Source: Pocillopora damicornis
Lineage: Eukaryota
Length of the DNA stretch: 64,000 nt
NCBI RefSeq assembly: GCF_003704095.1
Contig: NW_020845941.1
Span: 248,001-312,000, forward strand
Direction of reading: 5' to 3'
Shown here: positions 8,683-61,990 of the stretch, in pieces
Position numbering within the stretch: the stretch's first letter is position 1
Layout: the number at the start of each line of letters is the position of its first letter
Position numbers and translations under genes: made by a program
The notes under the pieces: model-generated
Databases searched by the model: none
What the model saw: the letters and a program-made list of their open reading frames with translations, nothing else
What the model was told of the DNA's origin: nothing

Positions 8683-8752
8683 GTCGACTGAAGGAAAGCG
8701 AAAGTACTCACAACAAGGAAACAAAACGAAAGATCAGTTCCGGTAAACGGCT

Positions 8753-25396: not shown

Positions 25397-28300
25397 CTAT
25401 ATAGACGATAGTGTGCTCCTTGGCGTTGGTATCGGCGGTTTTCCGTGTGAGCGATTAGGTAATCTTTTTAAATCTTTCACTGTGAATGGGTCCCTGGAAT
25501 CTTGCACGAGATTTTGATGCGAAGCCATATTAGGTTCCCCGCTTGCTTGACTGATATTGACGTAGGGAGGTTTATCCTTTCTCGTAATCTCATTCGGGGC
25601 AGGAAAAGAGCTTGGGCCATGTGCGTTGACAAGGTCCTCGGAAAGACTCCTCTGCCTCTCCTGTGATGGTGCTAGATTGACGTACGGCACGCGATTAACT
25701 TCCAGGAGCTTCCTTCTCAGAATTTCGATCAATTCCATTAATTCATCCGTGGTCCACTTCGTTTGCTGAATGGTCTTTTTAAGCTCACTTTTCATCTCGC
25801 ATTCATTCAATTCCACGCCGAAGGTGCTAGTGAAGTGAGTTCTGTACGACCAACACGTTTCGTTGGAATCTCCAGGATTTGGCCCATTTTCGTCGTTTTC
25901 TCGTCTGCTGCTGCCATGACTTCGCCCATTTTCGCGCTGTGAAGCACGGTCGAGTGGCATTACGGATTCTGCGTCAGTTGGTTCAATCGCAAAATGTGGA
26001 GATCTGTCGTGTGGTATTTCTGGTCTTCTTCCGTAGGTTTCCCCTTCACAATTTTCACTTATTTCTTGTTCTCTTGGATTTTGGTTCAGCCAAGTTGGGG
26101 TAGCTTGTCTTAAGGCGAAGGTTTCTGGCGCAGGCGAGCTCTGTTCAGATGTATTTGCTTGTGTGTGTGGTGCTCTTTCTTTCCCCGTTTGCTCTGGGAA
26201 CACGTTTCGAGGATTTTGTTCCTCAACCTCATTTTCTGTTTCCGAAGATCCTCCGCTTTCGAATTCTCTCAATCCCGTTTCCTGGGCGTTCACCGACTTA
26301 TTGCTATTCTTGGGTTTGGTCCCTGTGGCCAAGTTCTTTGATCTTTGATTTTGCAGGCGATTTATCTGGACGAGGGCTCTGTCTAATTTTGCCTGTGTCT
26401 CCAAATACTTTTTAATGTTAGTCATGGACTCGAAGTCATCATCGCGTGGACTAGATATCAAAATGTTGTCGCAAGAAGCAGCTTTTCTCGGTGGAATTCT
26501 CACCGAGTTGCTTTTTTCCTTCGGAGCCTGTTCTTTCTTTCTTCCCGCCCTGCTAGGATCTTGGCGGAACATTCTTGGCATTAACGTCAGCGACTGAAAG
26601 AACTTTCTCTTTGTGCTCTCTCCATTCATGCGGTGTTCTTCTTTGCTTTTTGCTCCAAGACTCGGTAATGAAATTTCGTTATCGTTTTCTGTGTGTTCAA
26701 AGAACATCTTTTTGGAACAATCAGGGTCGAGGTCATCGAAATTGTTGTTTTCCTCGTCACTTTGTTCAGAGGAGGCTTCCTCATCTTTCTGCATATTATG
26801 CTTTTTATTTGTATTTGCCTCGCTAGATTCAAAGTTCAAATCCAGATCGGCCTCCTTTTCTCTCGAACTTAGGGGGTCGTCTGTTGCCTCAGGAAGTGCT
26901 CCGTGTTCGCGGCGTGGTAAATCAGATCCTGTTTGCGCCGGTCGTAAAACGCGCACTGAGAATTGCTCGCGTTTTCTTTCAACTGGTAAACCTTCATCTG
27001 AAGGCACATTTGCATTTCTGTCGACGGATGGTTCGTAAGCTTTTCTTTTTGTGAAGGATGCCAAGAACAGAGGTTCTTCACTTTCATAGGGAATGTCTCC
27101 TGAAATTTGCATTTTACAGTTTACGTCGCCTACGTCGCTGTGTTTTGACCCTTCCTGCGGTTGTGACATGTCCTCTAGTAGCTTAACACAGCTCTGGCTC
27201 GGTGGTAAACTATCATCATTTAAGTCATTCGTCAGACTTTGTTCAGATAATACTACCTGCTTGTCTATTGTTTCAAAAGAATTTTCTTCCATTTCAGTTT
27301 CTTGTTTGTTGTCAAAATTCTTTGTTAAGTCCTCCTGGGAAGAAGCATGGGATCGTGTTGCAATCAAGGCCACCTTTGGCGGAAGGGGAGGTGCTTTCAT
27401 TTCCGAGAAGCTCTCTGGCTGAAACTTCTGAAAGCCTTTCTCCTTCGTTGCAGTTTCTTTTTTCATAGAGGGAGGATCAAGGGCAAACTCGAAGCCGACT
27501 CGTGAAACTTGCCTTTCTGTTGTTTCTATTCCTTGTGCGCAATCGAAAGGGAAACAAAAATGCTGTAACGACTCCAAAGAGCACCTCTTCACGGGATCAC
27601 TCGTAAAGGAAATACAGTTTGTGTTTGATAACTCATGTAGAACTGTTTCATTCGGTAATGCTTCTAGCAGCTTCTCGAATTCAGCTCCCCAGCGAGAAGT
27701 AAACCTCTCTCGAGACATACACTGGGCAACATTCATGTCTAGTGTCGATGGGAACATTAAAAGAATATTCTGTTCGCGAGTCGAAATGGCATAAACTACT
27801 TCTTCTTCAATCTCGCACTCCACGAGAATCTTTCCGAATATTGACCTCTGCTTTGCTCGAGGGTGTTCTGAAGAGCCGTCAACCATAGCTTTATTTCCAT
27901 AAGACACAACACGGACATTAACTGGAAGTGTGCAGTTCTGTAGAACCTCGTCTGTAGTAAATATTCCATGATTAGCGAGGACCTGAAACCTTCCTTCCAG
28001 GGTCAGAGGTAAATCCACTTGTACGGGATCTTTTAAGTTTACGATGAAACATCGTACAGTACTAAGGTTTAAATACGGGGGGTCTCGACTGATTTGCAAT
28101 ATATCTCCAGCGAGGAGGCCGAACAAAGGAACGTTCTCGACAATTCGAATGAACGCCGCAGAAGGAAGTTTTGCAATCGCGTCCAAAGTGGTGAACTCAT
28201 CTTGGGAATGTTCTGACACCAACTCTAACTTCAAATCACTTATTCTTGGCAAGCAGAGCGTTCTCCCACTACTTGAATGCTTTGCTTTTACTTTCCTCTC

Positions 28301-28486
28301 TCTTTCCACTTTGTAGATGATCAGTACGTCTCCAGTTTTAATGCTTTGATTCGCGGAGGTTCCACAAAATCCTTTGTCGACCTGGACCATCTGTGGAAGC
28401 TCAGACACATTTCGTGCGATGAATTCTTCAAGAGACATAACATGCGCCTCGCTGCTCAATGGCAGTGATAGTGATGGTTTTTCCAT
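25397..28486 (-). CDS. CABIT-domain adaptor 1 (Themis/GAREM-like, no SAM), 1029 aa, single exon
   Basis: N-terminal LEEFIARNVSELPQMVQVDKG and the CABIT core VRC-x10-VDLPLTLEGRF, followed by LPVNVRV. The long disordered tail has PPLPPK, two YVN motifs and PIPTPR. Confidence 0.88.
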   Translation of the reverse strand: MEKPSLSLPLSSEAHVMSLEEFIARNVSELPQMVQVDKGFCGTSANQSIKTGDVLIIYKVERERKVKAKHSSSGRTLCLPRISDLKLELVSEHSQDEFTTLDAIAKLPSAAFIRIVENVPLFGLLAGDILQISRDPPYLNLSTVRCFIVNLKDPVQVDLPLTLEGRFQVLANHGIFTTDEVLQNCTLPVNVRVVSYGNKAMVDGSSEHPRAKQRSIFGKILVECEIEEEVVYAISTREQNILLMFPSTLDMNVAQCMSRERFTSRWGAEFEKLLEALPNETVLHELSNTNCISFTSDPVKRCSLESLQHFCFPFDCAQGIETTERQVSRVGFEFALDPPSMKKETATKEKGFQKFQPESFSEMKAPPLPPKVALIATRSHASSQEDLTKNFDNKQETEMEENSFETIDKQVVLSEQSLTNDLNDDSLPPSQSCVKLLEDMSQPQEGSKHSDVGDVNCKMQISGDIPYESEEPLFLASFTKRKAYEPSVDRNANVPSDEGLPVERKREQFSVRVLRPAQTGSDLPRREHGALPEATDDPLSSREKEADLDLNFESSEANTNKKHNMQKDEEASSEQSDEENNNFDDLDPDCSKKMFFEHTENDNEISLPSLGAKSKEEHRMNGESTKRKFFQSLTLMPRMFRQDPSRAGRKKEQAPKEKSNSVRIPPRKAASCDNILISSPRDDDFESMTNIKKYLETQAKLDRALVQINRLQNQRSKNLATGTKPKNSNKSVNAQETGLREFESGGSSETENEVEEQNPRNVFPEQTGKERAPHTQANTSEQSSPAPETFALRQATPTWLNQNPREQEISENCEGETYGRRPEIPHDRSPHFAIEPTDAESVMPLDRASQRENGRSHGSSRRENDENGPNPGDSNETCWSYRTHFTSTFGVELNECEMKSELKKTIQQTKWTTDELMELIEILRRKLLEVNRVPYVNLAPSQERQRSLSEDLVNAHGPSSFPAPNEITRKDKPPYVNISQASGEPNMASHQNLVQDSRDPFTVKDLKRLPNRSHGKPPIPTPRSTLSSI

Positions 28487-29055
28487 CCTTATTACAAGTG
28501 TTTCGAGTTATGCTAAACGTATTTGCCAAAACGAACTAAATTACCCGATGCATAATGACTTGTTATTAGTATTGTGGTCAAATCACACTTCATCGACTTT
28601 ATTTAGAGTATGACTTTATTAACAACCCATTCATTGAGGTCAGGGGTCGTCTTCTCGGAAAGATCCAGTGGATGGAAATATATTTATTCTAAGAAGAACA
28701 ATATTTGCTGATAGTATCCCTTGTTGTTTTGTTTCGCCCTTTCACGGAATAAAGTTTCTACCGATATCTGACTGATCTTAAATTCCGAGATGCGCGATGA
28801 TTCTTCTTATGTAGCTCAGCAACCCTCAACACTCTGAAGATCATAAGATCTGTGTATGCAGTCTGTCCTTTATTGTTACACCTTTCCGGCAAGCCAAGAG
28901 ATAACTGTCTAAAAACTACACTGCATAGATGACAAAGGTTTCGTGGATCGACCTTTTTTCTTCCGCTTTACTTCACTGCTTTTCGAACCCGTGTCACAGC
29001 TCTCATGATTAGTCATTAGGGAGCACAATCGCGGTATTATCATCAAGCGTTCTTG

Positions 29056-29412
29056 TTAAAATCTCATAGTGTTTGTTCACTGTAATTCAGCAGCGCTGCC
29101 TTCATCAACACAGTAATTGGAGACATAAATCTTGTTTTATTATAAGTTTCTTACTAATCCAAGTCTTAACAGGATTTTTGCTTCGGTTTAGGTGTGTTCA
29201 GGAAATCGCAGTGATGAGATAATTAGCGTAGAAACAATGACCGGAAGTGAGTACGATTCTCAGAAACGGTAGTATTTTAGGACTGCGTTATCCTTCGTAA
29301 GTGTTTTTATATTTAAACAAAGTAATGATTACAAGAAATACTCATACAAACACCCAGCAGGCGTCAAGCGAATGATCACAGAATTTTTTTTCAAAACTTT
29401 CAAACAAAGGAA
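29056..29412. repeat. Non-coding direct duplication, copy 1 (copy 2 at ~31099-31354)
   Basis: The blocks ttaaaatctcatagt...cagcagcgctgccttcatcaacacagtaattg and caatgaccgg...ttcaaacaaaggaa appear in both copies. Copy 1 has about 100 extra bp. Confidence 0.9.
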
Positions 29413-31098
29413 GGAAGACATTTTGCTTTTAATTTTTTTTGAGTCCTCTCAGCTCCGGCCATGTCCTTTCACCGTCAGTGGGATTGCAGAGCACTAAAAA
29501 AGCCTCGTTTATCACGGATTTTGTAAGTTTTGATCGAAGTTCGTGCTAAAGGGAAGTTCTTTTTGATCCTATTTATGTTTGTTGTGAACATTATTATTAA
29601 TTGAATTATTCAAATTTAAATCGATTTGTTTTTCTGGTCCACGTGTTTTTATTTCTCTCCGAGTACTCGTATTATTAATCACTGGGCCTCCTTTGGTGAC
29701 CAGTTTAACTTTATAAATACCAAAAGGGACACCTAATCGAAGTAAAAGTAGGCATCTGTCTCTTCAGACGCGACCAAAGTATTAGAGACAACGAAACACA
29801 ATTGTATAGTTGTTAGCAAGAAGGATCCCTCTTTCGAGAAGCCCTAAGAATTTTTACTTCCCCTTTTTTTTAATCTTTTTAAAACTTTTTCAGACACAGC
29901 ATTATTTAAATCTAATTGCCAAAAGAAAAGCAATAAAAGGTTCCAGATATTCAGTAACATTTTAACGAAAGCTTTAACGCCTTTTTCGGTTTCCCCCTTC
30001 AGGAACTACACGGTAGGGGGTGCGTTACATTCAATCATAATTGTAAGAGAACATAACCCTCTTTAGTCGTTTGGCAAACTGGCCGGGAAGAACAGGCATA
30101 AGCCACAATTTATGGCTGTTCACCTTTTATTGTACACTTTCAATGTTAAAGGAGGGAGGAATTGAACTAATACTGTAATTCTGGTACAATCGAAACAAAA
30201 CAAAAATGGTATTTAAATTCACAGAACTTCAAATTATTTCAAGACCGATTTGTTGATGTGAACTTTGTTCACCCTATTGTTTGCTTGTTTAATCACGCGC
30301 CGATATGCATCGACATTTAACTCACGACAGTCAATCAGCACTACATGAGCAACTTTTTCATCACCTTCACCGAATGAATGACCTTCGAAATCGGAGTAAT
30401 ACGCTGAAACAGATTTCCGTCAATGACAACATACTGCGATATGAACAGTTCTATAGTTTGATAAACGTAGCGAACAACTGTTACAAGAATACTAAGAATA
30501 TTCTTTTGAAGAATACATAATAAAGTATTATGGGTGAACTTTTTTTGTTGATCGAATTATTGAAATTCATTTCCAAAGGAATTTAGATGAGGAGGGTTGC
30601 GTGACTGTAATATGATCGAAAAGGCAAGAAGCGGGCTAACAATAGAAAGAACGTTTTCCGTGTGTGATTTATCTTTGATATCTAAATCTATCAGATTTCA
30701 GAGAACGCGCTTGGTGTATCCCAACACTTGAACGCACCTTGTCCGGTCCTTAGCTGACCATTAAGGAATGTTGGACACCTTATCATTTAAAAATTTCCAC
30801 AAAACAATTTTTTTAGTATTATTTTGTTTTATTTTTTAATTCATTTATTTATCTATTTATTATTAACTATTTGACACTTTAACGTGATATGGGAGAAGCT
30901 TTCGTGTAGATATGTGTCTAGATATTTGTTAACTTTTATATTTTATATTCCTAATATTATATTTTTAATTAATATTTACTGTAATCAGTCCTTTTTATCG
31001 TTATATTAAGTTACTTCTGCTCGTAGTTCAGCCATGTACACATGATCCCCCTGCTCGGATGTGGATGGCAACACGCTTAACATTAATAAAATGATTGA

Positions 31099-31354
31099 TT
31101 AAAATCTCATAGTATTTGTTCACTGTAATTCAGCAGCGCTGCCTTCATCAACACAGTAATTGAAGATATTAATCTTTCAATGACCGGTAGTGAGTACAAT
31201 TCTCAGAAACGGTAGTATTTTAGAATTTCGATATCCTTCGTAAGTGTTTTTATATTTAAACAAAGTAATGATAACAAGAAATACTCATACAAACACCCAG
31301 CAGGCGTCAAACGAATGATCAGAGAATTTGTTTTCGAAATTTTCAAACAAAGGA
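31099..31354. repeat. Non-coding direct duplication, copy 2
   Basis: See 29056-29412. Confidence 0.9.
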
Positions 31355-31511
31355 ATCCATTGATTGATTTATTAATTGTTATCTCTCAGATAAAGTCTGG
31401 AGTTTGGTGGACCAAGAAATCGCTGGTGCTCTTAACATGTTGTAACTTCGAATAAGGAGTCATCCAGAAAGTCAAATCAAGGTTCAATTCTGCTGTTCAA
31501 ACGTATCCTTT

Positions 31512-33728
31512 TCACGCATCCCCTTTTAGGCGATCCAAATATTTTTGTATCTCTGCAAAGTCCACAAAATCGTCTTCTCTCCGAGGGGAGATGATTATGT
31601 TTTCTTCAGTTTGTGTGCGACGCGGCATCTCTGTCTGCTCCGCAGCTGGGAAACCGCAAGGTTGTGAGTGTTTAGACCACGAATTTTTGTCAGTGTTGTC
31701 AGTGCCTTCCGCCTTCTGAGGAAAGCTGTTTTTCTTTCGCATATCTGTTCGTGAAGATCCTCGATTTTCAATGTCACCGTTAATTGTGACACAATCCAAT
31801 CTTCTTTTTTCGAATTGTGTCACGGTATCACCAGCTCTTTCCGTTTCTTGTGTTGCGATAGGTGCATCCTCAGGAACCCTCATATCAACAGGCTCGAGAT
31901 AATACTCTTCTTGAAAGTTCTCTACGTTGGGCTGTATTCCATCCGTTTCTTTACCTCGCTGGTCTTCCATAAAAATGTATACTTCTTCTGTTTCCAGTGA
32001 ATAATTAAAGGATTGATCATTAGGTTCTAGATCAACTAATCTAAAAACACGTCCATCATCTTTGACTTCTGTATACACGTCATCGGCGATAACATCAATG
32101 TAGTAATCATCATTGCTCGCGTCCAATGCATCCTGCTTATTGGCCGCACGCTTTGTCCTCAGGTGTCTTTGCTCAACTCCTTTCCAGTCAGTAACGTCAG
32201 TTACTAAGTATGCCAAACCCTCACCGCACGGAGGAGTCCTTGGGGGCAATGGTGGTGGTGGTGATGATGTTTTTCTTAGAAATTCATGTTTTGGTGGTAG
32301 CTCGGGGCAAGCATCGTCGGAATCATCTTCTGAGGAACTTCTACACAACAGTGACCATTCCGAGTCAGAGAAGTGGTAGATTTGCGTTTTCGGTGATGGA
32401 TCCACAACGTTGCTGTTATTATCTCCCGGCACCTCATTTCCTGTGCCAACGCGCTTTCTAGGCGTGGGAATTGGACGACGACGAGCTAGAGGATGGCTTT
32501 CCTCCGTGACGTCGTGTGCTGCGTGGTGTCGCGCGTTGTATGACGTCGTGTGTTGCGTGACGTCGTGTGGCGTTGATCTTGCGTTGTGAGACATCTTATG
32601 ATGAAGATTGAAGACGGCATCATGGGCTTCCTCGTACGCCTTTGACATTTTGTCGTTCAATTTTTTGTCAATTTCAAAGTTTTCATAGTTTCTTTCAGCT
32701 TCAGAGGAAGACTGTGACGAGGACCCTGACCTTCCGTATTTACGCTCTGTTTCCAGTTTGGTGTTTACACAAAGACCTTCAGTTCTTTCATTTGTTTTGT
32801 TCACGAACGTTTTGTTTTCAGTTTTTTCGGGTTTTGAAAGCGAAGGAGATTGAAGTAGCTCGAGATTGAAATGTATGACGGGATATGTTGTGAAATAAAA
32901 AGAGTTGGCTTTAAGTCTGTCGAGTCGATCCAACGCTTTCTCAGACACCGCAAGATGCTGTCTGCAATGTTTGATCTTTTCACTTGTTTCTTCCGTGACT
33001 TTAAACCCGCAACCAACTTTAATGTCTAATGTTTTTGGGAACACGCTTAGCGAGTAAAGGTTATCAATCGAAGCTGCAAACACCATTTCAACTTCTCTTT
33101 CGCCCCTTAAATCGATGTTTCCCAAGTTTGATAAATGTCGGGTGCAAGCTTCGAAGTAGTCGTCTTCTAGAGAAACAAATCGAACACTCACTGGCAGTGG
33201 ATAGTTGGCCATAACCTCCTCTAGCTGGTATTCTCTTGCGCCTAAGAGCGGCTGAAATGTCCCTGATAGTTCCAGTGGCAGCAAAACCTCTTCAAAACTA
33301 TCCATGCGACTTATTAGGCATTTCACGAGGTTACTATGAAATTTGTCGCTCTTTAAAATTATCAGTGTTGTTTCTGAATTGATTCCAACCGAAGGAATGT
33401 CCTCCAGAACACGGAAATTCTTCGTTTGATATCCAGTGCATAACTCTCTTATTGAACAGTATTTTTTGTGGCACCCTGAAGGAATAAGCTGAATCTTGGT
33501 TTTTGAATTCTTCGGCACACAAAGCTCTCGATTGAACTGATCGATCGCAACAATCATTTTTTCCTTCTCGACTTTGTATATAACGAGTACGTGGTCTACT
33601 TCAAGCGTTTCGTCAACATCAGGCCCAAAATATCCTTCTACGATATTGACTGCTATGGGAAGAGCAGAGCCATAACACTGAAGAAATGTTTTAAGGTTTA
33701 CAGCATTTGCTGGCCCATCGAACTCCAT
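31512..33728 (-). CDS. CABIT-domain adaptor 2 (no SAM), 738 aa from the first ATG, single exon
   Basis: LKTFLQCYGSALPIAVNIVEGYFG...VKCLISRMDSFEEVLLPLELSGTF...YPLPVSVRF. Closest paralog of gene 3. The ORF-track start at 33812 is TTG; the first ATG is at 33728. Confidence 0.88.
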   Translation of the reverse strand: MEFDGPANAVNLKTFLQCYGSALPIAVNIVEGYFGPDVDETLEVDHVLVIYKVEKEKMIVAIDQFNRELCVPKNSKTKIQLIPSGCHKKYCSIRELCTGYQTKNFRVLEDIPSVGINSETTLIILKSDKFHSNLVKCLISRMDSFEEVLLPLELSGTFQPLLGAREYQLEEVMANYPLPVSVRFVSLEDDYFEACTRHLSNLGNIDLRGEREVEMVFAASIDNLYSLSVFPKTLDIKVGCGFKVTEETSEKIKHCRQHLAVSEKALDRLDRLKANSFYFTTYPVIHFNLELLQSPSLSKPEKTENKTFVNKTNERTEGLCVNTKLETERKYGRSGSSSQSSSEAERNYENFEIDKKLNDKMSKAYEEAHDAVFNLHHKMSHNARSTPHDVTQHTTSYNARHHAAHDVTEESHPLARRRPIPTPRKRVGTGNEVPGDNNSNVVDPSPKTQIYHFSDSEWSLLCRSSSEDDSDDACPELPPKHEFLRKTSSPPPPLPPRTPPCGEGLAYLVTDVTDWKGVEQRHLRTKRAANKQDALDASNDDYYIDVIADDVYTEVKDDGRVFRLVDLEPNDQSFNYSLETEEVYIFMEDQRGKETDGIQPNVENFQEEYYLEPVDMRVPEDAPIATQETERAGDTVTQFEKRRLDCVTINGDIENRGSSRTDMRKKNSFPQKAEGTDNTDKNSWSKHSQPCGFPAAEQTEMPRRTQTEENIIISPRREDDFVDFAEIQKYLDRLKGDA

Positions 33729-34062
33729 TGTAAATAACTTGTGTTCAGTCGAAACGAAGGCGTATACCTCTTTCGGTGTTCGAATGGGTTCATTTGGTAG
33801 ACGTCGAGTCAAACTCCGGATAACGGATAGAAAAGAAGTCTTGACATTTGTCCAAAATTAATTACAAGGACAGATTGCTGACTGATATATACACTTAAAC
33901 AAAACAATGAGGTTTCCTGTGGTCCTGAAATTACCGTATTAGGCTTTGTGAATTGATCCTTCGGCTCGCGATAGTAGACTTATGAGGTCACGAGGCTACA
34001 TCTAAAGTCATTGGTTTGAGTCTGACGTGATATTTAAAACTCTAGATCCCTTATAATTCCGT

Positions 34063-34073
34063 GAAACTGAAAC
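34063..34073 (+). promoter_or_regulatory. ISRE/IRF-type site GAAACTGAAAC upstream of CABIT gene 2
   Basis: Matches GAAANNGAAAC, about 335 bp upstream of the ATG. Confidence 0.4.
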
Positions 34074-34544
34074 GTTTCCGTAGCTGTTTCTTCTAATGTC
34101 CCTTCTGACCGCGAGTTACAGCGAGAAATGTAAAAGATATATTGACAATATTCCTGTGAAAGCAGGAAATGGCCCCTTTTAGTCCTCAGGTCAAGGGAAG
34201 TACGAAGCTAAAAAAGATATTTAAAGAAATCAAATACTTCCAGTTTAACATTGTCAAAGATGTTGACACGTTCAAAAACAATTAGAAGTTTGCAATGATA
34301 ACATTTCATTATTTTATCTTTTTGTCTTTGTTACAAGGATCATTACAGGAGAAAGTTCAGTTTAACGCGTTAAAAATTTTAATTTATATCTTAAAGGTGA
34401 AGATCGATTTAAAGAATTTAAGTAAATCTCGAGGTGATTTCGGTCTTACTTTGTGAGATTGCTCCAAAAGCTTATGAAGCGTTCCAAAATAACTTAGTCA
34501 CTCAGTACAGCAGAGTGCGTTACTGGCTATAAGCCAGTATAAAC

Positions 34545-35095
34545 CACAAAACGAATCCCACAAATTCATCACAGTAAAAGATATAAAACGTCTCTAGAAT
34601 TAGTTGTTTAATTTTAAAAAGTGCTTCGGAGAGAGCTCGACAAAACTTCGAATCGTTTCGGTATACCGTCGGTCTTCTCGCTTCGGGAGGACTTCCTTAC
34701 TTTTTTACGAACATAAGAGCTAAGCCCAAGTGAAGGCTTCTGCGGCTTCGTGTTGCGGGAGAAAGTTCGGCGGTTTCAACGCATTTAAAATTATGTTGGC
34801 TAAGATCCACGCGTGCTCTGAAGCGTAGTACATTTGTTTGTTTATTTTAAAATTCTTAAATTATCTGATGAGTTTCTTCACCGAGAGGAAACGCCGCTCC
34901 ATTTCATTTTCTCAAGAAGTCCACAGTTTTTCTACAGAGCAAAGAAATCCAATCACAATCGTTCCACAACGAAATCATCACATTGAAAGACATAAAACGT
35001 CTCTAGAAATAGTAGTTTAATCCTAAAAAGTGATTTGGAGAGAGCTCAACAAAGCTTCGAATCGTTTCGGTATCATTTCGGTATACCGTCGCTCT
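34545..35095. repeat. ~130 bp direct duplication (~34545-34675 and ~34964-35095)
   Basis: Shared sequence ataaaacgtctctaga...aaaaagtg...ggagagagctc...cttcgaatcgtttcggtat...accgtcg. Confidence 0.85.
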
Positions 35096-35835
35096 TGATC
35101 CCGCGCAAGGAGAAGATTGCGCCGCGCATTGGAGCGGACTTACAAAGTTCATGATTTTTTGACAATGTCGGCGATGGAGTCGCAAAAAGCAGCTGCAGAT
35201 AGTCAATACAAATGCTATGATTTTATTGCCCTACTAACGCAGGTCTATTTTTTCCGGCTCTTGAAATAAAGAAGTTATTCTTGATTTCCGTGAAATCGAT
35301 TTTTTTGCTATGTAATAAATTCTTTATTAACCAAGCTTATTCGACTAAGATGGCAGGAAATTAGCCTCGCTTTTTCTGTACGTTTTTGCAGACTTCGAAT
35401 TGGTCTCGGTCCCTAACAACGCATAAATAGAACTTTGCTAATATTCGGCCATCTCGACGTCACGCTTTTTGGTTAATAACACATATGTATTATATATGAA
35501 ATCGAAAAGAAAGCACTCTAGTTAAAAAGAATCTATTACTAATACAAAATAGTTTGCTAGTCTTCTACCGTCACTTTTGCACATCCCCACCCCCCATCAG
35601 AGCCAAACACAGCAAACTTTATGAATACCGATCGAAAAGTTAAGGTGTTCACAAAAGTTTGTAGTATCTTGACGTGGTTGTTCATGTACTTCGAAAGATT
35701 TCACTTCGGTCACATCATAACAAATTATTTAATACTGAGTATTTACTCAATATCTTCTCGCTTAGTAATTAAATGTCAAAGAGTTACATAACCTGCTCTG
35801 CATACTCCAGGGGACGGTTACCCAGCGAGAGGATA

Positions 35836-38800
35836 TCACACACTTGGGAGTTCTGATACAAGTAGTTCATGTAAGTTACGGGTTTCTTGTTCGCCAGTAA
35901 TTTTTTCAGACGTGGCCTCTCTCTTTCTTTTGTCCGTTATTTGAAGCACATTCTGTTTGAGTTGGTCTGAATCACTTTCTTCATCTTCGACATTAACATA
36001 AACAGAATCTTCCTCCTCGCTAGGGTTGTCAAGTTGCAGATAACGTGATACTCGGTCGCCTTTTGTCACCTCTACAGTTTTGGAGGAGATTACACCAAGT
36101 CTGTCTTCATCGTCCACTCTCTCACTGACTCGATTAGTTTCCACATACTGATAGGGTTCATCATTTATATCACAGTATGCAAATTCGTCCTCATCAAAGT
36201 TTTTGAGCGACATTTGGGGTTCGTGATTAATATAATGTCTGTCGCAACATTCTTCGTAATCGTCGTCATCGTCCAAATCTGAACTATAGGGTTTTTCTTT
36301 TTCGACCTGTTTTGACTGATAGGGTATATCATTCATATCACAGTATGCAAATTCTTCTTCATCAAAGTTTTTGTGCAACATTTTTGGTTCTTGATTGATA
36401 AAATGTCGGTCGCAACATTCTTCGTAATCGTCGTCATCGTCCGAATCTGAATCATAGGGTTTTTCTTTTTCGACGTGGCGTGGGAGAGTATTGGAACAAT
36501 CATCTTGATTACGCTTTGAATTCCCACAGCTCATGTTCTCAGGAATTTCTTCGTAGACCTGATCTTCTTCGTCGTTGGAGTTATGGGTGGGGAATTTGTC
36601 AATTATTCCCTGCCCTTGGGGACTAATGGGATAATCTCCTCGATCAAGCTTCGCCCTCAGAGGACCAAAGTTCAGGTTTAGGGTTGAGGGCAGTCCTGTT
36701 TGTTTAGTCTGCATTTTCCCTATAGAATTTTCTTTTTTGTGTAATTTGGCTTTTCTTTGTGAATGTTCACAAAATGGTTTGGCGGAGTCGAGGTCATTGT
36801 GATTTTTGTCATGGGTGTTGCTCTTCGTTTTTTTCGAATCTTCATCGCGCTTAAGTTGTGAGGCGTTACCAGCTGGTAATTGCTGCTTATGGGCTTCTAC
36901 TAGTTTCAGCTCGTCTTTTGTTGCGACTTGTTTTTCTAAATCGGCTACCCTCGCATTAACTTTCCTTAGTTCATTCATGAGTTTGAAATGCCGTTGGATA
37001 TCCTTAAAATCCATAAAATCATCTTCGTTTGGGCTGGAAATGATGAAATTCCTCTCATCCCTCTGATTGGTAGCAATCGCTGTGTGATGACGTGTTTTGG
37101 TGACAACAGGTCTTGGTTGTGTACCAGAAATATTTGTTGCCGTCTCAATCGCTGCCGTTTTCTTCTTTTCTGAAGTTTCTTGGGGCCCTTCCATCTCCTG
37201 GTAAGATGCCTCTTTTACCTTACTCTGATTGTCGAAACTTGTTGGTGCCTTGGCTTTATCTCTTCTACCACCATCTCCGAGTTCAGGATTCTCGCCGTGG
37301 TTTAAAAGACACGCTGCATTGGAATCAGTGCAATCTGCAACCTCATGGTATGTTTTCCGGTCTTCCAGGTTTTGACGGTCTGGTTTCATTTCAAGGTACG
37401 TTGGTTCGTCATTCAGTGGACAAGTCAAATGTTCGGCATCATGGAGTCTGAAGACCTGTCCATCATCTCTTGCATTCGTGTAAACAGAATAGTCCTCCAC
37501 TATTTTTGTGACCTTTTCTTCAACTGATGTGCACTCAGCATTTCTTTCCACTTCTTCATAAATGTCCGTTCCATCCTGATCAGAGTCAGAAGAAGCCTCG
37601 TTTGGGTACTTTTCAGCCAATCCTGAATCCTTACATTTCATATCAACATAGGTGTTGTCGTCGTCGTTCAGTTGACAAACACCACCTGGTACAAAACTTT
37701 TCCCATCATCCATGGGATCGGTGTACAGAGCTCTCTCTTCAACTGCTTCCCAGTCCGTGACGTCAACCACTAAGTAGGCCAAATCTTCAGCCAATGCTGA
37801 ATTAACCGGTCTTGGAGGTAGAGGTGGTGGACTTTCGCCTAAAGCAGCATTTCTTTCTTCACTTGTCTCCAAAGCTCTTAGAAAAAGGGGCTTGGGTGGC
37901 AAGTCAGGGCCGCGCTCATAGTCATCATTTCCAGAGGAACTGCTAGACTGCGAAGATACAGACCTCCCGGTTAAATCATGATCTGAGCTTGAGTCTTGTG
38001 TTTGTGAAGACACAGGTTCGTCGTTGGAGTCATCCTGACACCGCAACGACATGGCATTGAGACGCTTCCTTGGTTTGGGAACCGGTTTCCAGTTAGTTTC
38101 AGGGCTTTGAATTTGCGTGACGTCCGAGTTTATCAACGGTGGTTTTGCTTGGCGGAGAGTCTTTGGGGGAAGAGGTGGAGCCTCATCTGCGACCTTTTCT
38201 AAAGTTTCCGAATCAACACTCTTAACAGTATTCCATTCAATTTCTATGTTTTCATAGTCGTCTTCATCTTGACACAAAGATTCTGAGATGCACTCTGATT
38301 GTGAACGGTCACGCTCTGGTTCTTTCGTCATGGCTGTCTCTTCAGGTTTTACGCCGGTTGTTTTCGTCTTCTTCGGAATCAGTGCTACTGACGGGGGTTG
38401 GAGCGATTCCAATTCAAAGCACCTAACTGGGAAGGCGCTTAAAAATGCAGAACTAGCAATTATTCTGTCAAGTCGTTTTAATGATTTTTCGTTCTCTGCA
38501 AGACTCTGTCTGCATGCTTTGATCTTTTTGCTTGTGTCTGCCGTGAGTCTGAAACCACAACTAACATAAATTTCTAGTGTTCTTGGGAAAACATACAGGG
38601 ACAATTGATCATCAGGCAAAGCTGCAAACACCATTTCTACTTCGGTTTCTTTGGTTAGACACACATTCCCCGGATTTGTCAAGAGTCCACGGCCTGGATC
38701 AGTATTCGCTTGTGATTGATAAACAAATCGAATGTTGACAGGAACCTGAAACTGCTCAAGAACCTCTTCCAGGTAGTACTCCCTCGCATCCAAGAGCGGC

Positions 38801-39267
38801 TGAAATTTACCTCTTAGTTGAATTGGTAGAAAAATTTCCTTGGAGTTATGCAAACCAATCAGTTCACATTTCACGGAGTTGTTACGAATAGGTCGGCCGC
38901 CTAACAGTATCAGCGTTGTTTCTGAAGAAATTCCATGCGAAGGAATGTCTTCTAAAACGCGGAAATACAGCGTCCGATGAACATCGAATAATTCTTGTAA
39001 TGAGTTGTATTCTTCTTCACTCCCGGGTGGAAGAAGCAAAACTTTCCGTTTCGAATTTCGTGGTATACAAACCTCTTGTTTGTAGTGATCAAGGCCTATT
39101 AGCATTTTCTGCTTCTCGACTTTGTAGATAACGAGTATTTGGTCAGCCTCTAAAGTGTCTTCCCCATAAAAACCCTCTGTGATCTTGACTACCTTGGGGA
39201 GAGTCGAGCCATAGCATCGAAGATATGTCGATAGATCGACGGGAACAACTTTACTGACGGAGTCCAT
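35836..39267 (-). CDS. CABIT-domain adaptor 3 (no SAM), 1143 aa, single exon
   Basis: LSTYLRCYGSTLPKVVKITEGFYG...VKCELIGLHNSKEIFLPIQLRGKF...VPVNIRF. The acidic tail has many Tyr motifs, PxxPxR/K motifs and a coiled coil. Confidence 0.9.
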   Translation of the reverse strand: MDSVSKVVPVDLSTYLRCYGSTLPKVVKITEGFYGEDTLEADQILVIYKVEKQKMLIGLDHYKQEVCIPRNSKRKVLLLPPGSEEEYNSLQELFDVHRTLYFRVLEDIPSHGISSETTLILLGGRPIRNNSVKCELIGLHNSKEIFLPIQLRGKFQPLLDAREYYLEEVLEQFQVPVNIRFVYQSQANTDPGRGLLTNPGNVCLTKETEVEMVFAALPDDQLSLYVFPRTLEIYVSCGFRLTADTSKKIKACRQSLAENEKSLKRLDRIIASSAFLSAFPVRCFELESLQPPSVALIPKKTKTTGVKPEETAMTKEPERDRSQSECISESLCQDEDDYENIEIEWNTVKSVDSETLEKVADEAPPLPPKTLRQAKPPLINSDVTQIQSPETNWKPVPKPRKRLNAMSLRCQDDSNDEPVSSQTQDSSSDHDLTGRSVSSQSSSSSGNDDYERGPDLPPKPLFLRALETSEERNAALGESPPPLPPRPVNSALAEDLAYLVVDVTDWEAVEERALYTDPMDDGKSFVPGGVCQLNDDDNTYVDMKCKDSGLAEKYPNEASSDSDQDGTDIYEEVERNAECTSVEEKVTKIVEDYSVYTNARDDGQVFRLHDAEHLTCPLNDEPTYLEMKPDRQNLEDRKTYHEVADCTDSNAACLLNHGENPELGDGGRRDKAKAPTSFDNQSKVKEASYQEMEGPQETSEKKKTAAIETATNISGTQPRPVVTKTRHHTAIATNQRDERNFIISSPNEDDFMDFKDIQRHFKLMNELRKVNARVADLEKQVATKDELKLVEAHKQQLPAGNASQLKRDEDSKKTKSNTHDKNHNDLDSAKPFCEHSQRKAKLHKKENSIGKMQTKQTGLPSTLNLNFGPLRAKLDRGDYPISPQGQGIIDKFPTHNSNDEEDQVYEEIPENMSCGNSKRNQDDCSNTLPRHVEKEKPYDSDSDDDDDYEECCDRHFINQEPKMLHKNFDEEEFAYCDMNDIPYQSKQVEKEKPYSSDLDDDDDYEECCDRHYINHEPQMSLKNFDEDEFAYCDINDEPYQYVETNRVSERVDDEDRLGVISSKTVEVTKGDRVSRYLQLDNPSEEEDSVYVNVEDEESDSDQLKQNVLQITDKRKREATSEKITGEQETRNLHELLVSELPSV
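36147..36474 (-). repeat. In-frame 168 bp (56 aa) tandem duplication in the gene 3 tail
   Basis: VEKEKPYxSDxDDDDDYEECCDRHxINxEPxMxxKNFDExEFAYCDxNDxPYQ occurs twice, with an offset of exactly 168 nt. Confidence 0.95.
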
Positions 39268-41275: not shown

Positions 41276-43744
41276 AGGCACACGTGTCGGGGAGAGCTTT
41301 CTTTAAAAAGAAAAGTTCTTATTGAGTAGCTCACCATCGTAAATAGTCGTTTTTGAGCTGTTGTATGCACAATCAATAGTTGAAAAATTAGTATATGCGA
41401 CTCGCTCAAGCATATTTTAAGGACAACAATAGCGGGAAGCTAGGTTATATTAGGCTATTAGTAAGGTCGGCGCACTTTAAGACTTAAAACGCACGAGATT
41501 TATAAATAGGTGATGTGTAATTCTAATTTATTACGCGGAACGAGTTGTATTGTTTTCTTCAAAGCATAATGACACAGGCCATCGAGTACTTTGTAATACG
41601 TATACTTTAAATATTAATGTATTTTATTGTTTTTCGAAAGACGTTTCCAATCTGTTTATTTGGAAGAGTCAAGAATAAATATTTTTTTTGATCAATGACG
41701 CAAGATTCTGATGGCAATTTTAGGTAATCGTCTTAACAACAAAGTGCATGTTTATAACATTACTTAGAGTGAACCATTTTTGAATGTTTTAGTAATTCGC
41801 TTTCCATCTCGTGCTTTCGTTTATACATGCCAATTCTTAGCACTGTTTTCAAAACTCCTCCAAATTGTTTGATGAGAATATTTTATCGGGAAACCCTTGG
41901 ATTTTTAAATGATCACCACGAGTAGGAAATCAGCTTTTCTAGTATTCAGACATTTGACGCGGGCGAAACGGCGCTATTAATGAAACGAAAGAGCTGTCAC
42001 CAGCATCAGCCAACTTCGTGTGAAGTAACCGACGCGTAAGCAGTTTATAGAATTTCAGTCATGAAGGGGTTCGTTGTTCGATAACGAGACTGAACTGTGT
42101 AAGCTTCGCCGCTTTATTAAGAATACAGTGATGCTGCACATAGTATAACAAACGTATTGCTTACTGGAAATCCGATACTTGTAGCCGAAATCGTTCGAGG
42201 ATGGAAACATTTTCATTGTTTTTCCAAGTAATGCCCGCTAGTTTCACGCGGTAAACTAATGACGACCAAGAGCAATCATTCATAACGCTTGTAACTGCAA
42301 TTTTGATACTCTTTCAAGCGGACAGATACTGGGAGTTTGGAGCCTTTACAACGGAAATGGCCTCTTGGTGAAACCTTATTCTTAGCGAAAGCCTACAAAG
42401 ATAGGTAGGAAACTGAACTAAGGAAATTGCTCCCTAGACTGTCGGAGTGCCAAAAGGATAAGACATCCTGATTTTAAGATTAGTGTCAATCTTACCGTGG
42501 TTGAACTTCCTTTTCGAGACAAAAATTAACAAAGAAATTGATCTTCAGGAAGTTTAATATTTGTCAAATGGATTAAATTCTGACAGAACGGCATTCTTTA
42601 CTTGTATCAGTAGAAAAGGATGTTGGATCAAAAAAACTTCTGTGGGAAATTGACCTTTGAAATTGATATTGACCCTCTTCTGGAAAAGTATCACGTTTTA
42701 AACAAGTATTTTGTGATTTATTATAAGTTAGCGCTTGAGGCGTGAGTGTGTGCTTGTGTGCGAATATTTCCATTGGTGAAATATTCGAGTCCTGCAAAGA
42801 ATTTCAGTTGACAATCGAAGGTTTCACAAAACAATTTTGGAGTAACCTGAATAAGGGCATGTGAAATGTTCGCATTTTTTGCCAGTTTTGGTAATTGATA
42901 GAGGATGTGAAACCAAACCGACAGTCTTATTTCATTTCACGTAAAAAACTAAAGAAAAATAAGCTAATTTAAGACGACGACCAAGTTGGTGAACCGAAAT
43001 AATTAAGTAATTCAGTCGTAAAAAGTATCTCGGGGCCTTGTTCCCGGGGACCTTGTTCCCAGGGGCTTTGATCCCTGGAACCCTACGTTTGGTCTCTAAA
43101 ATGACGGGACCCCACGGGATCCTACCGACAAAATCCACCGATTTCATGAAATTAATAGCCAACCACGCTGTCTGGGCCATGAAGGTTAAAGTTTTGTAAA
43201 TGCTTCTACGCAGAAAGCAAAGCCCGTCCGTAAACATTCAGTTTCGTGTTTCGTTGAATCATATTAAAAAATAAAATATATATTTAGAAGTGCGGCGAAA
43301 AATGCAATTGTAAGATCTATAGGGGAACAAAGTTGGGTAAAATAAATATTTGGTAGAAAAGCATGAAAAAAAAACCAGTTTATTACCATAATTCAATGAA
43401 GGAAAGATAGCCAACGTATCTCGGGTCTCAAAAGTGTATTTTCATACTGATGTCAAGCTAAAGAGGTTCGAAAAAGCTGTTTATTATATTTCAGTTTCTA
43501 AACGACATCAATTGGTTGTATAACTCTGCAACAGCAAAGAAGTCTGTACATGTGTCATAAAGGGTTGGAAATTAGATTGACCGAGACAAGTAACAAGTTT
43601 CAATTTAATCGGAAGTTCAATCGACAGATTTTTTAAAACTGTTTGAAGGGATTCAATACTTGTCTTTCCATGTCACCGATGCCACGTTGGCTGAACAAGG
43701 ACGACAGACTCTGCATTTCGTTTCATCTAAGGGCTTAGTTTGCT

Positions 43745-46312
43745 ATGTCGGACCAGCAACGGAGTGAACTCGTTTCGCTGAGCGCCAACTCTTTTTCACT
43801 GAAAGATTTCGTGGGAAAGTTTCCACTTCCACAGACAGTCACCTTTCAAGAAGGATATTTTGACGAATACCAGAGTAAAACTATCGGTGCTGGCACTGAG
43901 TGTAATTTGTTATCTTTAGAAAGTGTCGAAACGGCAATATTTGAAGATAAAGATGGCGAAGACATTCACATCCCGCTTCAGGATCCATTTGGCGTGGAGC
44001 GCGTCGCAGAGGCTACATTCGAACAAAATCTCACCCTTGCAGACCTGATCCTAGAGAGTTCCATGGTAAAGTTTGTTCGTGTCGTCGAGACTGATCCAAA
44101 CTTCGAAAGTATCATCAGGCAAGGGGACAAGCTGAGGATAGAGAGGAAAAATTCTCGTGAGACCTTTCTGGCCTTCAAAATTGTCAGTGATAAGGGAAAA
44201 CCTCTAATTAAAGTCCCTGCTAGTTGTCAAGCAAAATTTCTACCACTTTGGAACGGCGAGGAGTTGCCTCTTAGCAAGTTTGTGAAGAAGTACAAGCTTC
44301 CTGTCTATGTGGTGATGAATTTTATCGACTATAGTACGGACAAGAATTTAAATAAGGGACAAGGAAACCCCAGAGAGAGGCCAACAACAAGAATAGTTAA
44401 GAGCCTACGTCATCTGTCCAATAGCGTTCTTAAATTAAAGGGAATTTTAGCAGATTCTATTGTGCTAGCTTCAATGGAGGTGGATGGTATACCTTCAAAG
44501 TTTTCATTTCCCAAAACTCTACCAATTAATGTTGCGCCTTTGAGAATGGAATCTAAAACTGGAGCACCAGGTAACAAACTAGATTTCATATCGAGCGAAA
44601 GGAACGAAACTGGAAATTACGACAGTGAATTGATCGCAGTAGAGGAGAACGAGTACGAAGATATGTCTGGCTTCAGAGATCCACAAGGATCGTCTCAATC
44701 AAAAATGAGAGTTGGATTTGAAAATAACAATAAATGTGGTGATGAAGCGAGGAAAATCACGCAGTTAGCGGGGCTGGGTGCACGCCACAACACATACTCC
44801 CCAGCGCCCTCCAAAAGAGTAATTAGAAGCCAAAGCGAGAGGCTACCAAGAAAAGGAAACTGGACATTTTCAAGAATTGTTAGCAATTTGGAACTACCAA
44901 GCGAAGACAACCTTTATGACGAGTTAAAGTTTCGTACACTGCCTCAAAAAGTGAAAAAACATCCGCCGTCATTGACAAGAAGAGCAAGTGACTGGAACAT
45001 TGAGCGAGTATCGAAACAGAATTTAAATAACCTATTACACTTGCAGGCTCAAAGCGGGGAAGATCATGGCTTTCAAGGTCACGTCGAAGTGGTTTCGTTA
45101 CAGATTCCGAAACTTTCGCCTACCTATAAGACATGCCCAAGGATGAAAACATTTGGAAGGAAAACAAAAAGCAATGAAACTGAAAGTAGCCCTTATGACG
45201 TCCAAGAATTAAATTTTGACAGCCATGCTAGCAAGTCATTGAACATGAATCATTTGCCAGCGAGGTTAACTTCAACGACTTCGAAAGCGCCCTTTTATGA
45301 ATCCGAGGAGATGGAGTATGATGCTCCTTCAAACCTAAACCTTTCAAATCACTCAGAAGGAAAACGAGGAAGTGACGATGCACTCCCATCCCTTCCTTCT
45401 TCACAAAGAAGTTGTGGAGAGGGATTTCATCTCTCCTCTCGTGATCCTCTTTTGAAAGAGAGAGAAGATCCAAAAGGAAGACATTACGTCCTTGACACCA
45501 AGATCCCATTCGTTGGCACCAGTCTAAAGAAAATTATTCCACCAGAACCTCCTGAAAAGGATGACTTTTACGAAAATGTAAAGATGCAAACGAAATCAGT
45601 TGTCGGTCCCACAAGAGGGCGTGAAGCAGTAACGAACAAAAAGGAGGTTGGCGTCGAGGTGTCAAAAGTCAATGCAAGTAAAATTGATTCCAAAACCGAG
45701 CCCTTGGAGAGAAGGGACAACTGCTCTATTAGAAGAGATGAACCAAAATCAGCTACAGGTCCGACAGGTCTACTAGAACCAGAAAGTATCGAAAAGGAGA
45801 AGGAATCACCACCCATTCCCCCACGGCTGAAGCACATTGAAGAACCTCTGTACTCCTCAGTACTTAAGAAAGGAAATCCATCACAAGATAAGATCAGCGA
45901 TTTGCATTCTGATCCATTACCCAGGGGAAGACCTCAACCTTCTCCTAGACGGCCTCGAGATGGTAGCAACCTCTCTCCAACGGATTCGATGAAAGCTAAG
46001 AGCACTTCAGGCGTCCATTCTGATTCAGTAACACCTTCACTTGAAAAGAAACCAAAGACGGCTGTCAATGATGACCGAAACTCAGACTTTGTCATTCCAC
46101 AAGACCTAAGTGCTCTGAGTGTCACTGATGTGTTGAAGTGTCTAAACGCTTTGAATATGAAGAAATTTGAGGATATTTTCAGTGAACGCCAAGTCGATGG
46201 AAACATGCTCGTCTGCTTGGATGAAGAAGCCATGGAGTCGATTGGAATAGATCGCTTCCATCGTTTGAAACTCCTCAAATTCGTTGCAGGTTGGAGACCA
46301 CAGCTACACTGA
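43745..46312 (+). CDS. CABIT + SAM adaptor 4 (GAREM-like), 855 aa, single exon
   Basis: SLKDFVGKFPLPQTVTFQEGYF...YKLPVYV. The C-terminal SAM DLSALSVTDVLKCL...VDGNMLVCLDEE...KLLKFVAGWRPQ resembles the GAREM ending (DLSGLS...IDGNLL...FINGWRPK). Confidence 0.88.
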   Translation: MSDQQRSELVSLSANSFSLKDFVGKFPLPQTVTFQEGYFDEYQSKTIGAGTECNLLSLESVETAIFEDKDGEDIHIPLQDPFGVERVAEATFEQNLTLADLILESSMVKFVRVVETDPNFESIIRQGDKLRIERKNSRETFLAFKIVSDKGKPLIKVPASCQAKFLPLWNGEELPLSKFVKKYKLPVYVVMNFIDYSTDKNLNKGQGNPRERPTTRIVKSLRHLSNSVLKLKGILADSIVLASMEVDGIPSKFSFPKTLPINVAPLRMESKTGAPGNKLDFISSERNETGNYDSELIAVEENEYEDMSGFRDPQGSSQSKMRVGFENNNKCGDEARKITQLAGLGARHNTYSPAPSKRVIRSQSERLPRKGNWTFSRIVSNLELPSEDNLYDELKFRTLPQKVKKHPPSLTRRASDWNIERVSKQNLNNLLHLQAQSGEDHGFQGHVEVVSLQIPKLSPTYKTCPRMKTFGRKTKSNETESSPYDVQELNFDSHASKSLNMNHLPARLTSTTSKAPFYESEEMEYDAPSNLNLSNHSEGKRGSDDALPSLPSSQRSCGEGFHLSSRDPLLKEREDPKGRHYVLDTKIPFVGTSLKKIIPPEPPEKDDFYENVKMQTKSVVGPTRGREAVTNKKEVGVEVSKVNASKIDSKTEPLERRDNCSIRRDEPKSATGPTGLLEPESIEKEKESPPIPPRLKHIEEPLYSSVLKKGNPSQDKISDLHSDPLPRGRPQPSPRRPRDGSNLSPTDSMKAKSTSGVHSDSVTPSLEKKPKTAVNDDRNSDFVIPQDLSALSVTDVLKCLNALNMKKFEDIFSERQVDGNMLVCLDEEAMESIGIDRFHRLKLLKFVAGWRPQLH

Positions 46313-50862: not shown

Positions 50863-52128
50863 CAACAACACTTCTTCTAACTAACAATCCTGCGATATTT
50901 AGCATACTGTTTCAACCTTCTTACAGTGATCCCGTGACACTGACTCTATTTTTATTGTTATTAGTTTTGAGGAGGGGGGGGGCATAGTTTGCTTCCTCTC
51001 TATCAAATGTAGTTATCAGACATCAGTTCCGTGATGATAAAAGTTTCTAACAGCTCAACAAGATTGTTTAAAACTAAAATTGAGATACGTTTGAAAACTC
51101 AAAAATTATAACTAAAACAAAGGGCGCCTCAAAACTATGCGAAGTTTCGATATTTCCGCTATCATAAACCTCCCCCAGAAAATTCCTTCGCTAAGAAGAG
51201 ACAGCGCTGGCAGTTAACCAATGAACCATAACTCACGTTTAGATAATCTCATGTCGTGGATGCTAAGCTGAGACAAGCAAACAATTAAACCGAATGATTA
51301 ACGTCTACGTTTGGCAGTTTGGAAACAAATTTTTTAGCGTATTTCAGCTTTTCCACCTCAGTTTAACGATCCTGAAACTGATAGAGCACATGGTTCATGC
51401 GTCGCTCTAACTACTGCTTAGATTACCTTATGCGATGTGTAAATAGGAGGTGCTATACTCATTTGCTAATTAATATACTATCATCCAGTAGAGTGGATTT
51501 ACATCTCGTCAATAATAGATCAGTAGATACCGTTTTCTAGCTATCAATTTGATAATAATTCAACGCGCTTGCGTGACAAACCAAGCTTGAATTTTCAAGA
51601 TCGTTTTCATTTAAATCAATCCTTCATACCCAGAAGCTTCTAGATTACAGACTCGAACCAAGGAAAGAGTTTTGTGCTTTTATAACGGTAACCCTTCCCC
51701 CCTCCCCTTCCCCCCCTCTGATGTAATAATCTTCATTGCCTTTTTCCTTTCGTCTAAGTACAGAACTTGACAAAGAAGTGGGTTTCATTTAGAGCCACAA
51801 ACACAGACGTGACACGAACATGAGCGTGAACGACAAACACCTCGTGACATTTTTTTGGCATGATTTCAAAGAAATAATTAGCATAAATAGCATACTCAAT
51901 GAAGGCGTTTGATAGTTAGTCGTCCTGCCGTGCCACGATCGCAACAAGGAGCCTAACCCTTAACATAAAAACCATAAGGAAGTTTGCCTATCTTTCGTGT
52001 TCATTTTGCGTACCGATTTTGTGGCAGCGGAAAGCGTCGTATGTCAGAGGCGGGTATAACTCTCCTATGGATCTTTCTGTTTCTGTGGCAATGGTTTAAA
52101 TCAGGAACCCTGCAGTCTGCTCCTGTCC

Positions 52129-61621: not shown

Positions 61622-61990
61622 CTGTGCATCAGCCAAGCTTGATAAGCTTACTTATCCTTTTTTTCATCCTTTTTTGGAATAAATTAAATCAATACAAAAT
61701 GAAAGATGAAGGACTGGGAATTAAGCTTCCAAAAAATTGAATTTTAATGTGTAAGCTAGATTTAAGGAAGTAATCTTTCAATCATGACATGATATGTTAC
61801 AGCGCATCTCGACCTATACTTCTAGTTAAAAGCTGAAACGATTATTTCGTTTATCAGTGTTTCATACGGCTCATCATGTGCAAGATCATCCCGCAATGAC
61901 AAGGACTGTGTATTTACAAACACCTACCCACCTGAAAAGTCTTTACATTTATCGGAGAAAGTAAACAGACCTTGACACCTAGTTTTAAAC

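Follow-up and report, generated by a model that had tools for sequence, protein, structure and literature searches.

Vertebrate proteins with a CABIT domain tune receptor tyrosine-kinase and immune-receptor signaling. GAREM1 and GAREM2 contain one N-terminal CABIT domain, a long tail with proline-rich motifs and a C-terminal SAM domain, a layout summarized as CABIT, proline-rich region (PRR) and SAM in one report (PMC4082722). Themis and Themis2 lack a SAM domain and have two CABIT domains per chain, followed by a tail with proline-rich SH3-type and tyrosine motifs, the proline-rich stretch binding SH3C of Grb2; both CABIT domains and the proline-rich stretch of Themis are required for stable binding of Grb2 (PMC13381594). 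Our literature searches on invertebrate and coral CABIT proteins, which left most subscription papers including the original description of the family outside their reach, returned no study of coral members, and a Caenorhabditis elegans review mentions CABIT only in its glossary (PMC11094273). Here, we analyze a stretch of 64,000 nucleotides from the coral Pocillopora damicornis (contig NW_020845941.1, positions 248,001 to 312,000; "the window"), which contains seven long open reading frames (ORFs), all of one family, and describe a conserved module of approximately 40 residues in the tails encoded by genes 1-3. This module is real, new and lineage-limited and it occurs in a known family of adaptors; its function is what we infer.

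In a Pfam scan of the window, genes 1-3, 5 and 6 matched CABIT and genes 4-6 matched SAM; a local CABIT profile additionally matched genes 4 and 7. With PF12736 scores of 63.3, 59.0 and 66.4 bits against a curated cut-off of 24, the proteins encoded by genes 1-3 are, by their domain content, CABIT-domain adaptors of the Themis/GAREM family. Genes 5 and 6 and the divergent gene 4 fit the GAREM layout, whereas genes 1-3 are without the C-terminal SAM and carry the module instead. With Themis and Themis2, the proteins of genes 1-3 share CABIT homology (Table 1), the lack of SAM and the types of tail motifs, and they differ from them in having one CABIT domain and the module rather than two CABIT domains per chain: genes 1-3 each contain one CABIT stretch, the structural model of gene 3 has one ordered N-terminal domain, and the module was not found in the Themis chains in PDB sequence searches. 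The tails that carry the module also hold PxxP-basic, YxN and YxxM strings, which are docking sites for SH3 and SH2 domains; for binding of Grb2 or SHP phosphatases these strings are motif-level hints only.

The original prediction, made from the letters of the window, held that the three SAM-less minus-strand genes keep one common block amid largely unalignable tails and that this block runs into heptad-like helices in genes 1 and 3. We find both the block and the helices as quoted. The block lies on the minus strand at 26402-26467 in gene 1, 31536-31601 in gene 2 and 36985-37050 in gene 3, i.e. the coordinates given earlier were right to within one base (26403-26468 for gene 1 was off by one), and gene 2 stops 7 and not 6 residues after it. 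The tail of gene 1 is indeed unalignable with the other two, but the gene 2 and gene 3 tails align with each other (34% over 792 aa, E-value 2e-116). As previously suggested, the SAM-bearing genes 4-6, in which Pfam finds the SAM domain, contain no match to the block. Pairwise identities between the three blocks are 12/22, 9/22 and 12/22, and no other 22-mer scores as high as the block when the gene 1 tail is compared with the gene 2 and gene 3 tails; upon shuffling the gene 1 tail 300 times, the gene 1/gene 2 score was reached in 0/300 cases and the gene 1/gene 3 score in 1/300. A non-circular test that is stronger than shuffling comes from profiles compared across the two types of homologs, here referred to as gene-1 type and gene-3 type. 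A profile of 22 gene-1-type blocks had the block as its top match in 40/40 gene-3-type proteins, and the reverse profile had it in 22/22 gene-1-type proteins, with medians of 16.6 and 29.5 bits (minima 1.0 and 23.6) compared with a shuffled maximum of 3.6; P0067 was omitted from this test, and the lowest gene-3-type score, 1.0 bit, is inside the shuffled range. The block is the first half of the module.

The module consists of an acidic arm, I-S-x-[PR]-R-[ED]-[DE]-D-[FW], and a subsequent amphipathic helix of approximately three heptads. Counting over 63 unique ungapped blocks (67 carriers with duplicates and one gapped block removed), D15 (63/63), S9 (62/63), I8 (61/63), I22 (60/63) and L32 (58/63) are near-invariant, and A35 (54/61) and R12 (52/63) are also conserved. 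The remaining pattern is [RPH] at position 11, acidic residues at 13-14, [FWCL] at 16, a hydrophobic residue at 19 and an aromatic residue or L at 25-26, with L32, A35, [IV]39, L42 and Q45 in the helix after the arm. Heptad positions 32, 35, 39 and 42 are hydrophobic in 77-98% of the sequences and positions 31, 38, 45, 29 and 43 in at most 8%, so the helix has the hydrophobic a/d heptads of a coiled coil, about three in number; gene 2 has none of them. The net charge of the arm is -3.0 and -2.5 and that of the helix +2.8 and +2.1. For the isolated module, the AlphaFold2 prediction shows the arm as extended, then a helix of three residues and a long one, with a mean predicted local distance difference test (pLDDT) value of 85.6 for helix 19-47. 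In the full-length prediction of gene 3 (50 sequences), the helix comprising residues 754-794 is the sole ordered element of the tail, and the arm is predicted to be disordered (pLDDT <50) and forms no strand. No stretch of the tail is better conserved than the block among 30 gene-3-type proteins (0.71-0.76 vs a tail mean of 0.36); in 20 gene-1-type proteins, many of which are close orthologs, the block ties with a stretch 40 residues upstream (0.88 vs 0.91).

We tentatively favor a reading in which the module folds upon binding and pairs the CABIT adaptors that carry it. In this scheme, (i) the predicted helices of two module-bearing proteins would zip together, (ii) the acidic arm would fold onto the basic helix, and (iii) pairing, either of like with like or of gene-1 type with gene-3 type, would unite the lone CABIT domains of both proteins and, with them, the SH3/SH2 docking tails in the way that two-CABIT Themis clamps Grb2. 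Without the heptads, gene 2 would show little or no pairing. Themis holds Grb2 by means of two CABIT domains together with a stretch rich in proline, and pairing could therefore plausibly supply a second CABIT domain. In favor of pairing are the conservation of the module and its heptad pattern, the ordered helix in the predictions, the opposite charges of arm and helix, the weak resemblance to coiled coils and the adjacency of the two types in a second coral contig (see below). Alternatively, the module might fold back on the CABIT domain of its own chain as an autoinhibitory latch. A CABIT domain is present in every full-length carrier examined, yet the arm is strandless and below a pLDDT of 50 in the full-length gene 3 prediction (one model, contacts unreported), and we regard a latch as rather improbable.

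The motif had been described as unrecognized, and no annotated domain matches it. Pfam and NCBIfam scans with 25 module sequences gave weak matches only (best E-values 0.0019 and 0.056), PDB sequence searches with the module returned nothing below an E-value of 0.27, the ESM Atlas contained no usable match for the module or for a second block in gene 1 (see below), and Foldseek with the full-length model had no match at an E-value of 0.001 or less. VIA-align related the CABIT domain to SH3-like folds (Z up to 5.7) and the module to generic helices (Z approximately 5 in the full model and 4.3 alone). The Pfam resemblances below cut-off are partly to coiled coils (GIT_CC, Bap31_C and TSC22); GIT_CC appeared below cut-off in 2/25 members (best Pfam E-value 0.023), and PDB entry 2w6a had an E-value of 4.4. 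The module is similar to the GIT1 coiled coil in that a short helix, a turn and a long amphipathic helix are predicted over about 40 residues, and we take its layout to be reminiscent of the SARAH and Rab11-FIP Rab-binding domain (RBD) pairing modules. It differs from all three in that there is no significant sequence match and in that its fold matches generic helices; SARAH and RBD-FIP were unlisted in the Pfam scan, in which the HMMER filters discard weak matches.

Several further candidates were rejected. A degenerate SAM domain had an hhalign probability of 0.1% against a three-sequence SAM profile (genes 4-6) and no Pfam SAM match. The consensus of LC3-interacting regions/Atg8-interacting motifs (LIR/AIM) is [WFY]-x-x-[LIV] after acidic residues, and both positions fit in 11/63 blocks, the aromatic residue being replaced by C or L in 12. 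Calcineurin PxIxIT sites have a leading P and IQ motifs a conserved Q after I; these are found in 1/63 and 6/63 blocks, respectively. The CRIB consensus is ISXPXXXFXHXXHVG in a source according to which partial CRIBs can bind and one CRIB histidine contacts Asp38 of Cdc42 (PMC4855144). In about half of the members, the I-S-x-P...F...[IV] spacing of the arm resembles this consensus and the Par6-type semi-CRIB, with I in 61/63, S in 62/63 and V/I in 62 of 63. However, P is found in only 28/63, often being R or H, and the F-x-H-x-x-H-V-G part that membership in the CRIB (PBD) family would require has F in 37, the two histidines in 1 and 0 and G in 2 of 63. The two histidine positions are mostly D, C or S, and aspartates would presumably be unfavorable there; the heptad helix follows directly, Pfam gave no PBD match, and the PDB searches returned no CRIB protein. 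A degenerate CRIB or semi-CRIB arm that binds a Rho-family GTPase is, on this balance, very unlikely.

Three word-index searches identified 42 distinct proteins, 37 of which have the block; P0004, P0006 and P0028 in this set are near-identical to genes of the window, and the non-carriers are three fragments of 443-548 aa and two proteins of divergent type (P0044 and P0045). An index-free scan of 1.84 billion representatives with a 25-sequence profile of 48 columns gave 42 matches at an E-value of 0.001 or less. These matches comprise 36 proteins or fragments of the CABIT clade, each of which has a CABIT domain or aligns to CABIT-clade proteins, and 6 repeated coiled coils (P0071, P0074-P0077 and P0079; at most 16 bits per stretch), which we do not count as carriers. 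None of the 36 true matches among the 1.84 billion representatives falls outside this CABIT clade, and the module is, on the evidence of these matches, restricted to one clade of CABIT adaptors among the proteins searched. The named carriers are from Montipora capricornis, M. foliosa, Porites lutea and Oculina patagonica, all stony corals, and the reach of the module is limited accordingly; this distribution is a lower bound, given that most records are unnamed and that a 48-column profile can miss distant versions. Orthologs keep the motif and no annotated domain matches it, so neither outcome named as refuting the original prediction came about, and a conserved, unannotated module of an interaction type is supported. 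The single record named Desmophyllum is not counted among the named carriers: P0214 (693 aa) does not contain the block, which is nevertheless present in P0034, the representative of its cluster.

In a midpoint-rooted tree of CABIT domains with 40 rows (a selection of the fetched proteins and genes 4-7), the gene-1-type and gene-3-type proteins form two groups with a support of 100/99 each. Both types and P0044 are on one side of a 98/90 branch and genes 4-7 are on the other; genes 4-7 have long branches and their placement is unsure. The module is, by this topology, older than the split of the gene-1 and gene-3 types. Because one branch separates all carriers from genes 4-7, the absence of SAM and the presence of the module probably reflect a single inherited event and not a repeated swap. 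The idea that the motif marks SAM-less genes holds for genes 1-3. It lacks support beyond them, as does the suggestion that the module replaces SAM, because the pairing with SAM loss amounts to approximately one event and because SAM and a scoring block are both missing from gene 7 and from P0044, the latter nested among carriers (SAM is also absent from the 550 bases of the window that remain after gene 7). A strict form of this idea, in which the module functionally replaces SAM and marks SAM-less CABIT proteins generally, overlaps with the pairing reading. It would agree with the absence of the block from genes 4-6 and with a SAM profile built from genes 4-6 that had 0 matches among 225 fetched proteins, 208 of them with the block; these proteins were picked by likeness to genes 1-3, however, and include no outside SAM-bearing protein. 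Together with the single branch and the proteins that lack both elements, including the P0044 cluster, this makes strict substitution improbable.

In another coral contig, L002, a gene-3-type gene directly precedes a gene-1-type gene, and the two types also adjoin in the window. Because L002 lacks a gene 2 at this place, gene 2 probably arose later as a truncated duplicate of gene 3, which it joins weakly in the tree (91/66). Gene 2 and its cluster representative P0028 both end at the same point past the block, and no remnant of the lost helix half was found downstream of gene 2. P0078, from a separate subgroup, ends 13 residues past the first half, and the heptads of P0033 are altered. The fact that truncated proteins from separate subgroups, gene 2/P0028 on one hand and P0078 on the other, retain the first half, and the identity of the gene 2 block to that of gene 3 (12/22, compared with 33% in the aligned preceding tail), point to a second scenario: the module could be a fold-on-binding dock for a separate conserved partner such as a kinase, phosphatase, GTPase regulator or trafficking adaptor, with the arm and the first helix turns binding and the heptads merely adding avidity or a second contact. 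The invariant I8, S9 and D15 and the frequent R12 in an arm without predicted intramolecular contacts are consistent with such a dock, as is a report that CABIT-family proteins act via protein-protein interactions (bioRxiv 2024.10.01.616165). The partner itself is hypothetical, though, the module fits no known linear-motif class, and the heptad half, where present, is conserved equally to the arm; we consider an outside partner nearly as likely as pairing.

Returning to the pairing of CABIT adaptors, several points weigh against it. Three heptads are short for a stable dimer, and the most invariant residues are polar or located in the arm that is predicted to be disordered and thus fit a conserved outside partner as well. 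The truncated or altered modules of gene 2/P0028, P0078 and P0033 suggest that the first half may work alone, and other blocks in the gene 1 tail are equally conserved. Both the self-association of the module and a need of single-CABIT proteins for another CABIT domain are assumptions on our part. Co-folding of two copies of gene 3 residues 730-798, with the alignment unused and controls not folded, gave scores of 0.06 and 0.03 compared with a mark of 0.32, an outcome that speaks neither for nor against pairing. More specifically, adjacent gene-1-type and gene-3-type adaptors could heterodimerize via the module to form a Themis-like clamp in trans, generating a combined Grb2/phosphatase hub with half-module paralogs such as gene 2 as tuning decoys, a scenario that we consider unlikely. 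If the module does pair single-CABIT chains, the tandem-CABIT arrangement known from Themis would be reached by a second route. As a conserved unannotated element, the module provides a concrete handle on the assembly of an expanded cluster of coral adaptors.

Genes 1-3 are transcribed as single ORFs: they are covered by RNA contigs from three studies, and no intron-type joints were found within the ORFs. This evidence consists of contigs and is hence silent on strand and expression level. A 1-base deletion at 31520 in one RNA contig would alter only the last few residues of gene 2. The sequencing runs in which the DNA occurs are marine or coral samples. The features of the locus are listed in Table 1.

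Table 1. Genes, CABIT domains and modules in the window (positions count from the first base of the window)
Feature	Positions	Strand	Description
Gene 1	25397..28486	-	Single-ORF CABIT adaptor, 1029 aa, gene-1 type; Pfam CABIT E-value 3e-17
Gene 1 module (acidic arm and heptad helix)	26345..26467	-	Residues 674-714; orthologs keep the module
Gene 1 CABIT domain, Pfam-matched part	27707..28399	-	Pfam
Gene 2	31512..33728	-	CABIT adaptor, 738 aa; ORF end falls within the module
Gene 2 truncated module	31515..31601	-	Arm and first helix turns, heptads absent; P0028 has the same end
Gene 2 CABIT domain, Pfam-matched part	32976..33662	-	Pfam
Gene 3	35836..39267	-	CABIT adaptor, 1143 aa, gene-3 type; tail with PxxP and tyrosine motifs
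Gene 3 module	36925..37050	-	Predicted helix 754-794
Gene 3 CABIT domain, Pfam-matched part	38602..39201	-	Pfam; profile matches Themis PDB chains, E-value 4e-4
Gene 4	43739..46312	+	Divergent CABIT-like and SAM; without module
Gene 5	49048..50880	-	CABIT and SAM; without module
Gene 6	52060..53841	+	CABIT and SAM; without module
Gene 7	61989..63446	+	Divergent CABIT-like ORF without SAM or module; CABIT profile 44.9 bits

Other parts of the tails are also conserved. Just upstream of the module, gene 1 has a second unannotated block (26552-26617, minus strand; residues ~624-645) of the form basic-FF..SLT..P..FRQD, which is conserved as strongly as the module in gene-1-type proteins and had no match in the Pfam scan. 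A two-helix-like block at 25712-25804 (minus strand; residues ~895-925) is specific to the gene-1 type, with K899, I906, W911, E915 and L919 invariant in 15 sequences; it is not a SAM domain by hhalign, Pfam, PDB and Atlas searches gave nothing significant, and it is possibly another small new module. In gene 3, residues ~492-513 (37729-37794, minus strand) form a conserved AYLVVDVTDW-type block beside proline-rich motifs that is common to gene 2 and the gene-3-type proteins. Directly ahead of its half-module, gene 2 has the string R-R-T-Q-T-E (31602-31625, minus strand), unseen in the other aligned proteins, which we take to resemble a site for the dynein light chain LC8. In the SAM-less CABIT proteins P0044, P0114 and P0115, the C-terminal 50 residues look module-like by eye without a scoring match, and P0044 was rejected as a carrier on this ground.

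The RNA contig X19 skips 1639 bases (window 34152-35792) with CT..AC ends, the short side comprising only 27 letters, and joins sequence just beyond the gene 3 stop to that upstream of gene 2; the join may reflect a 5' exon belonging to gene 2 or splicing of a read-through transcript. Positions 3-107 of L002 hold the end of a SAM gene that is 80% identical to gene 4 and lies upstream of the gene-3-type gene on the same strand. Gene 4 is on the opposite strand in the window, which suggests a local inversion. Finally, the window contains two tandem C19orf12-like genes on the minus strand at 8257-8733 and 10314-10844 (Pfam E-values 2e-19 and 4e-18).

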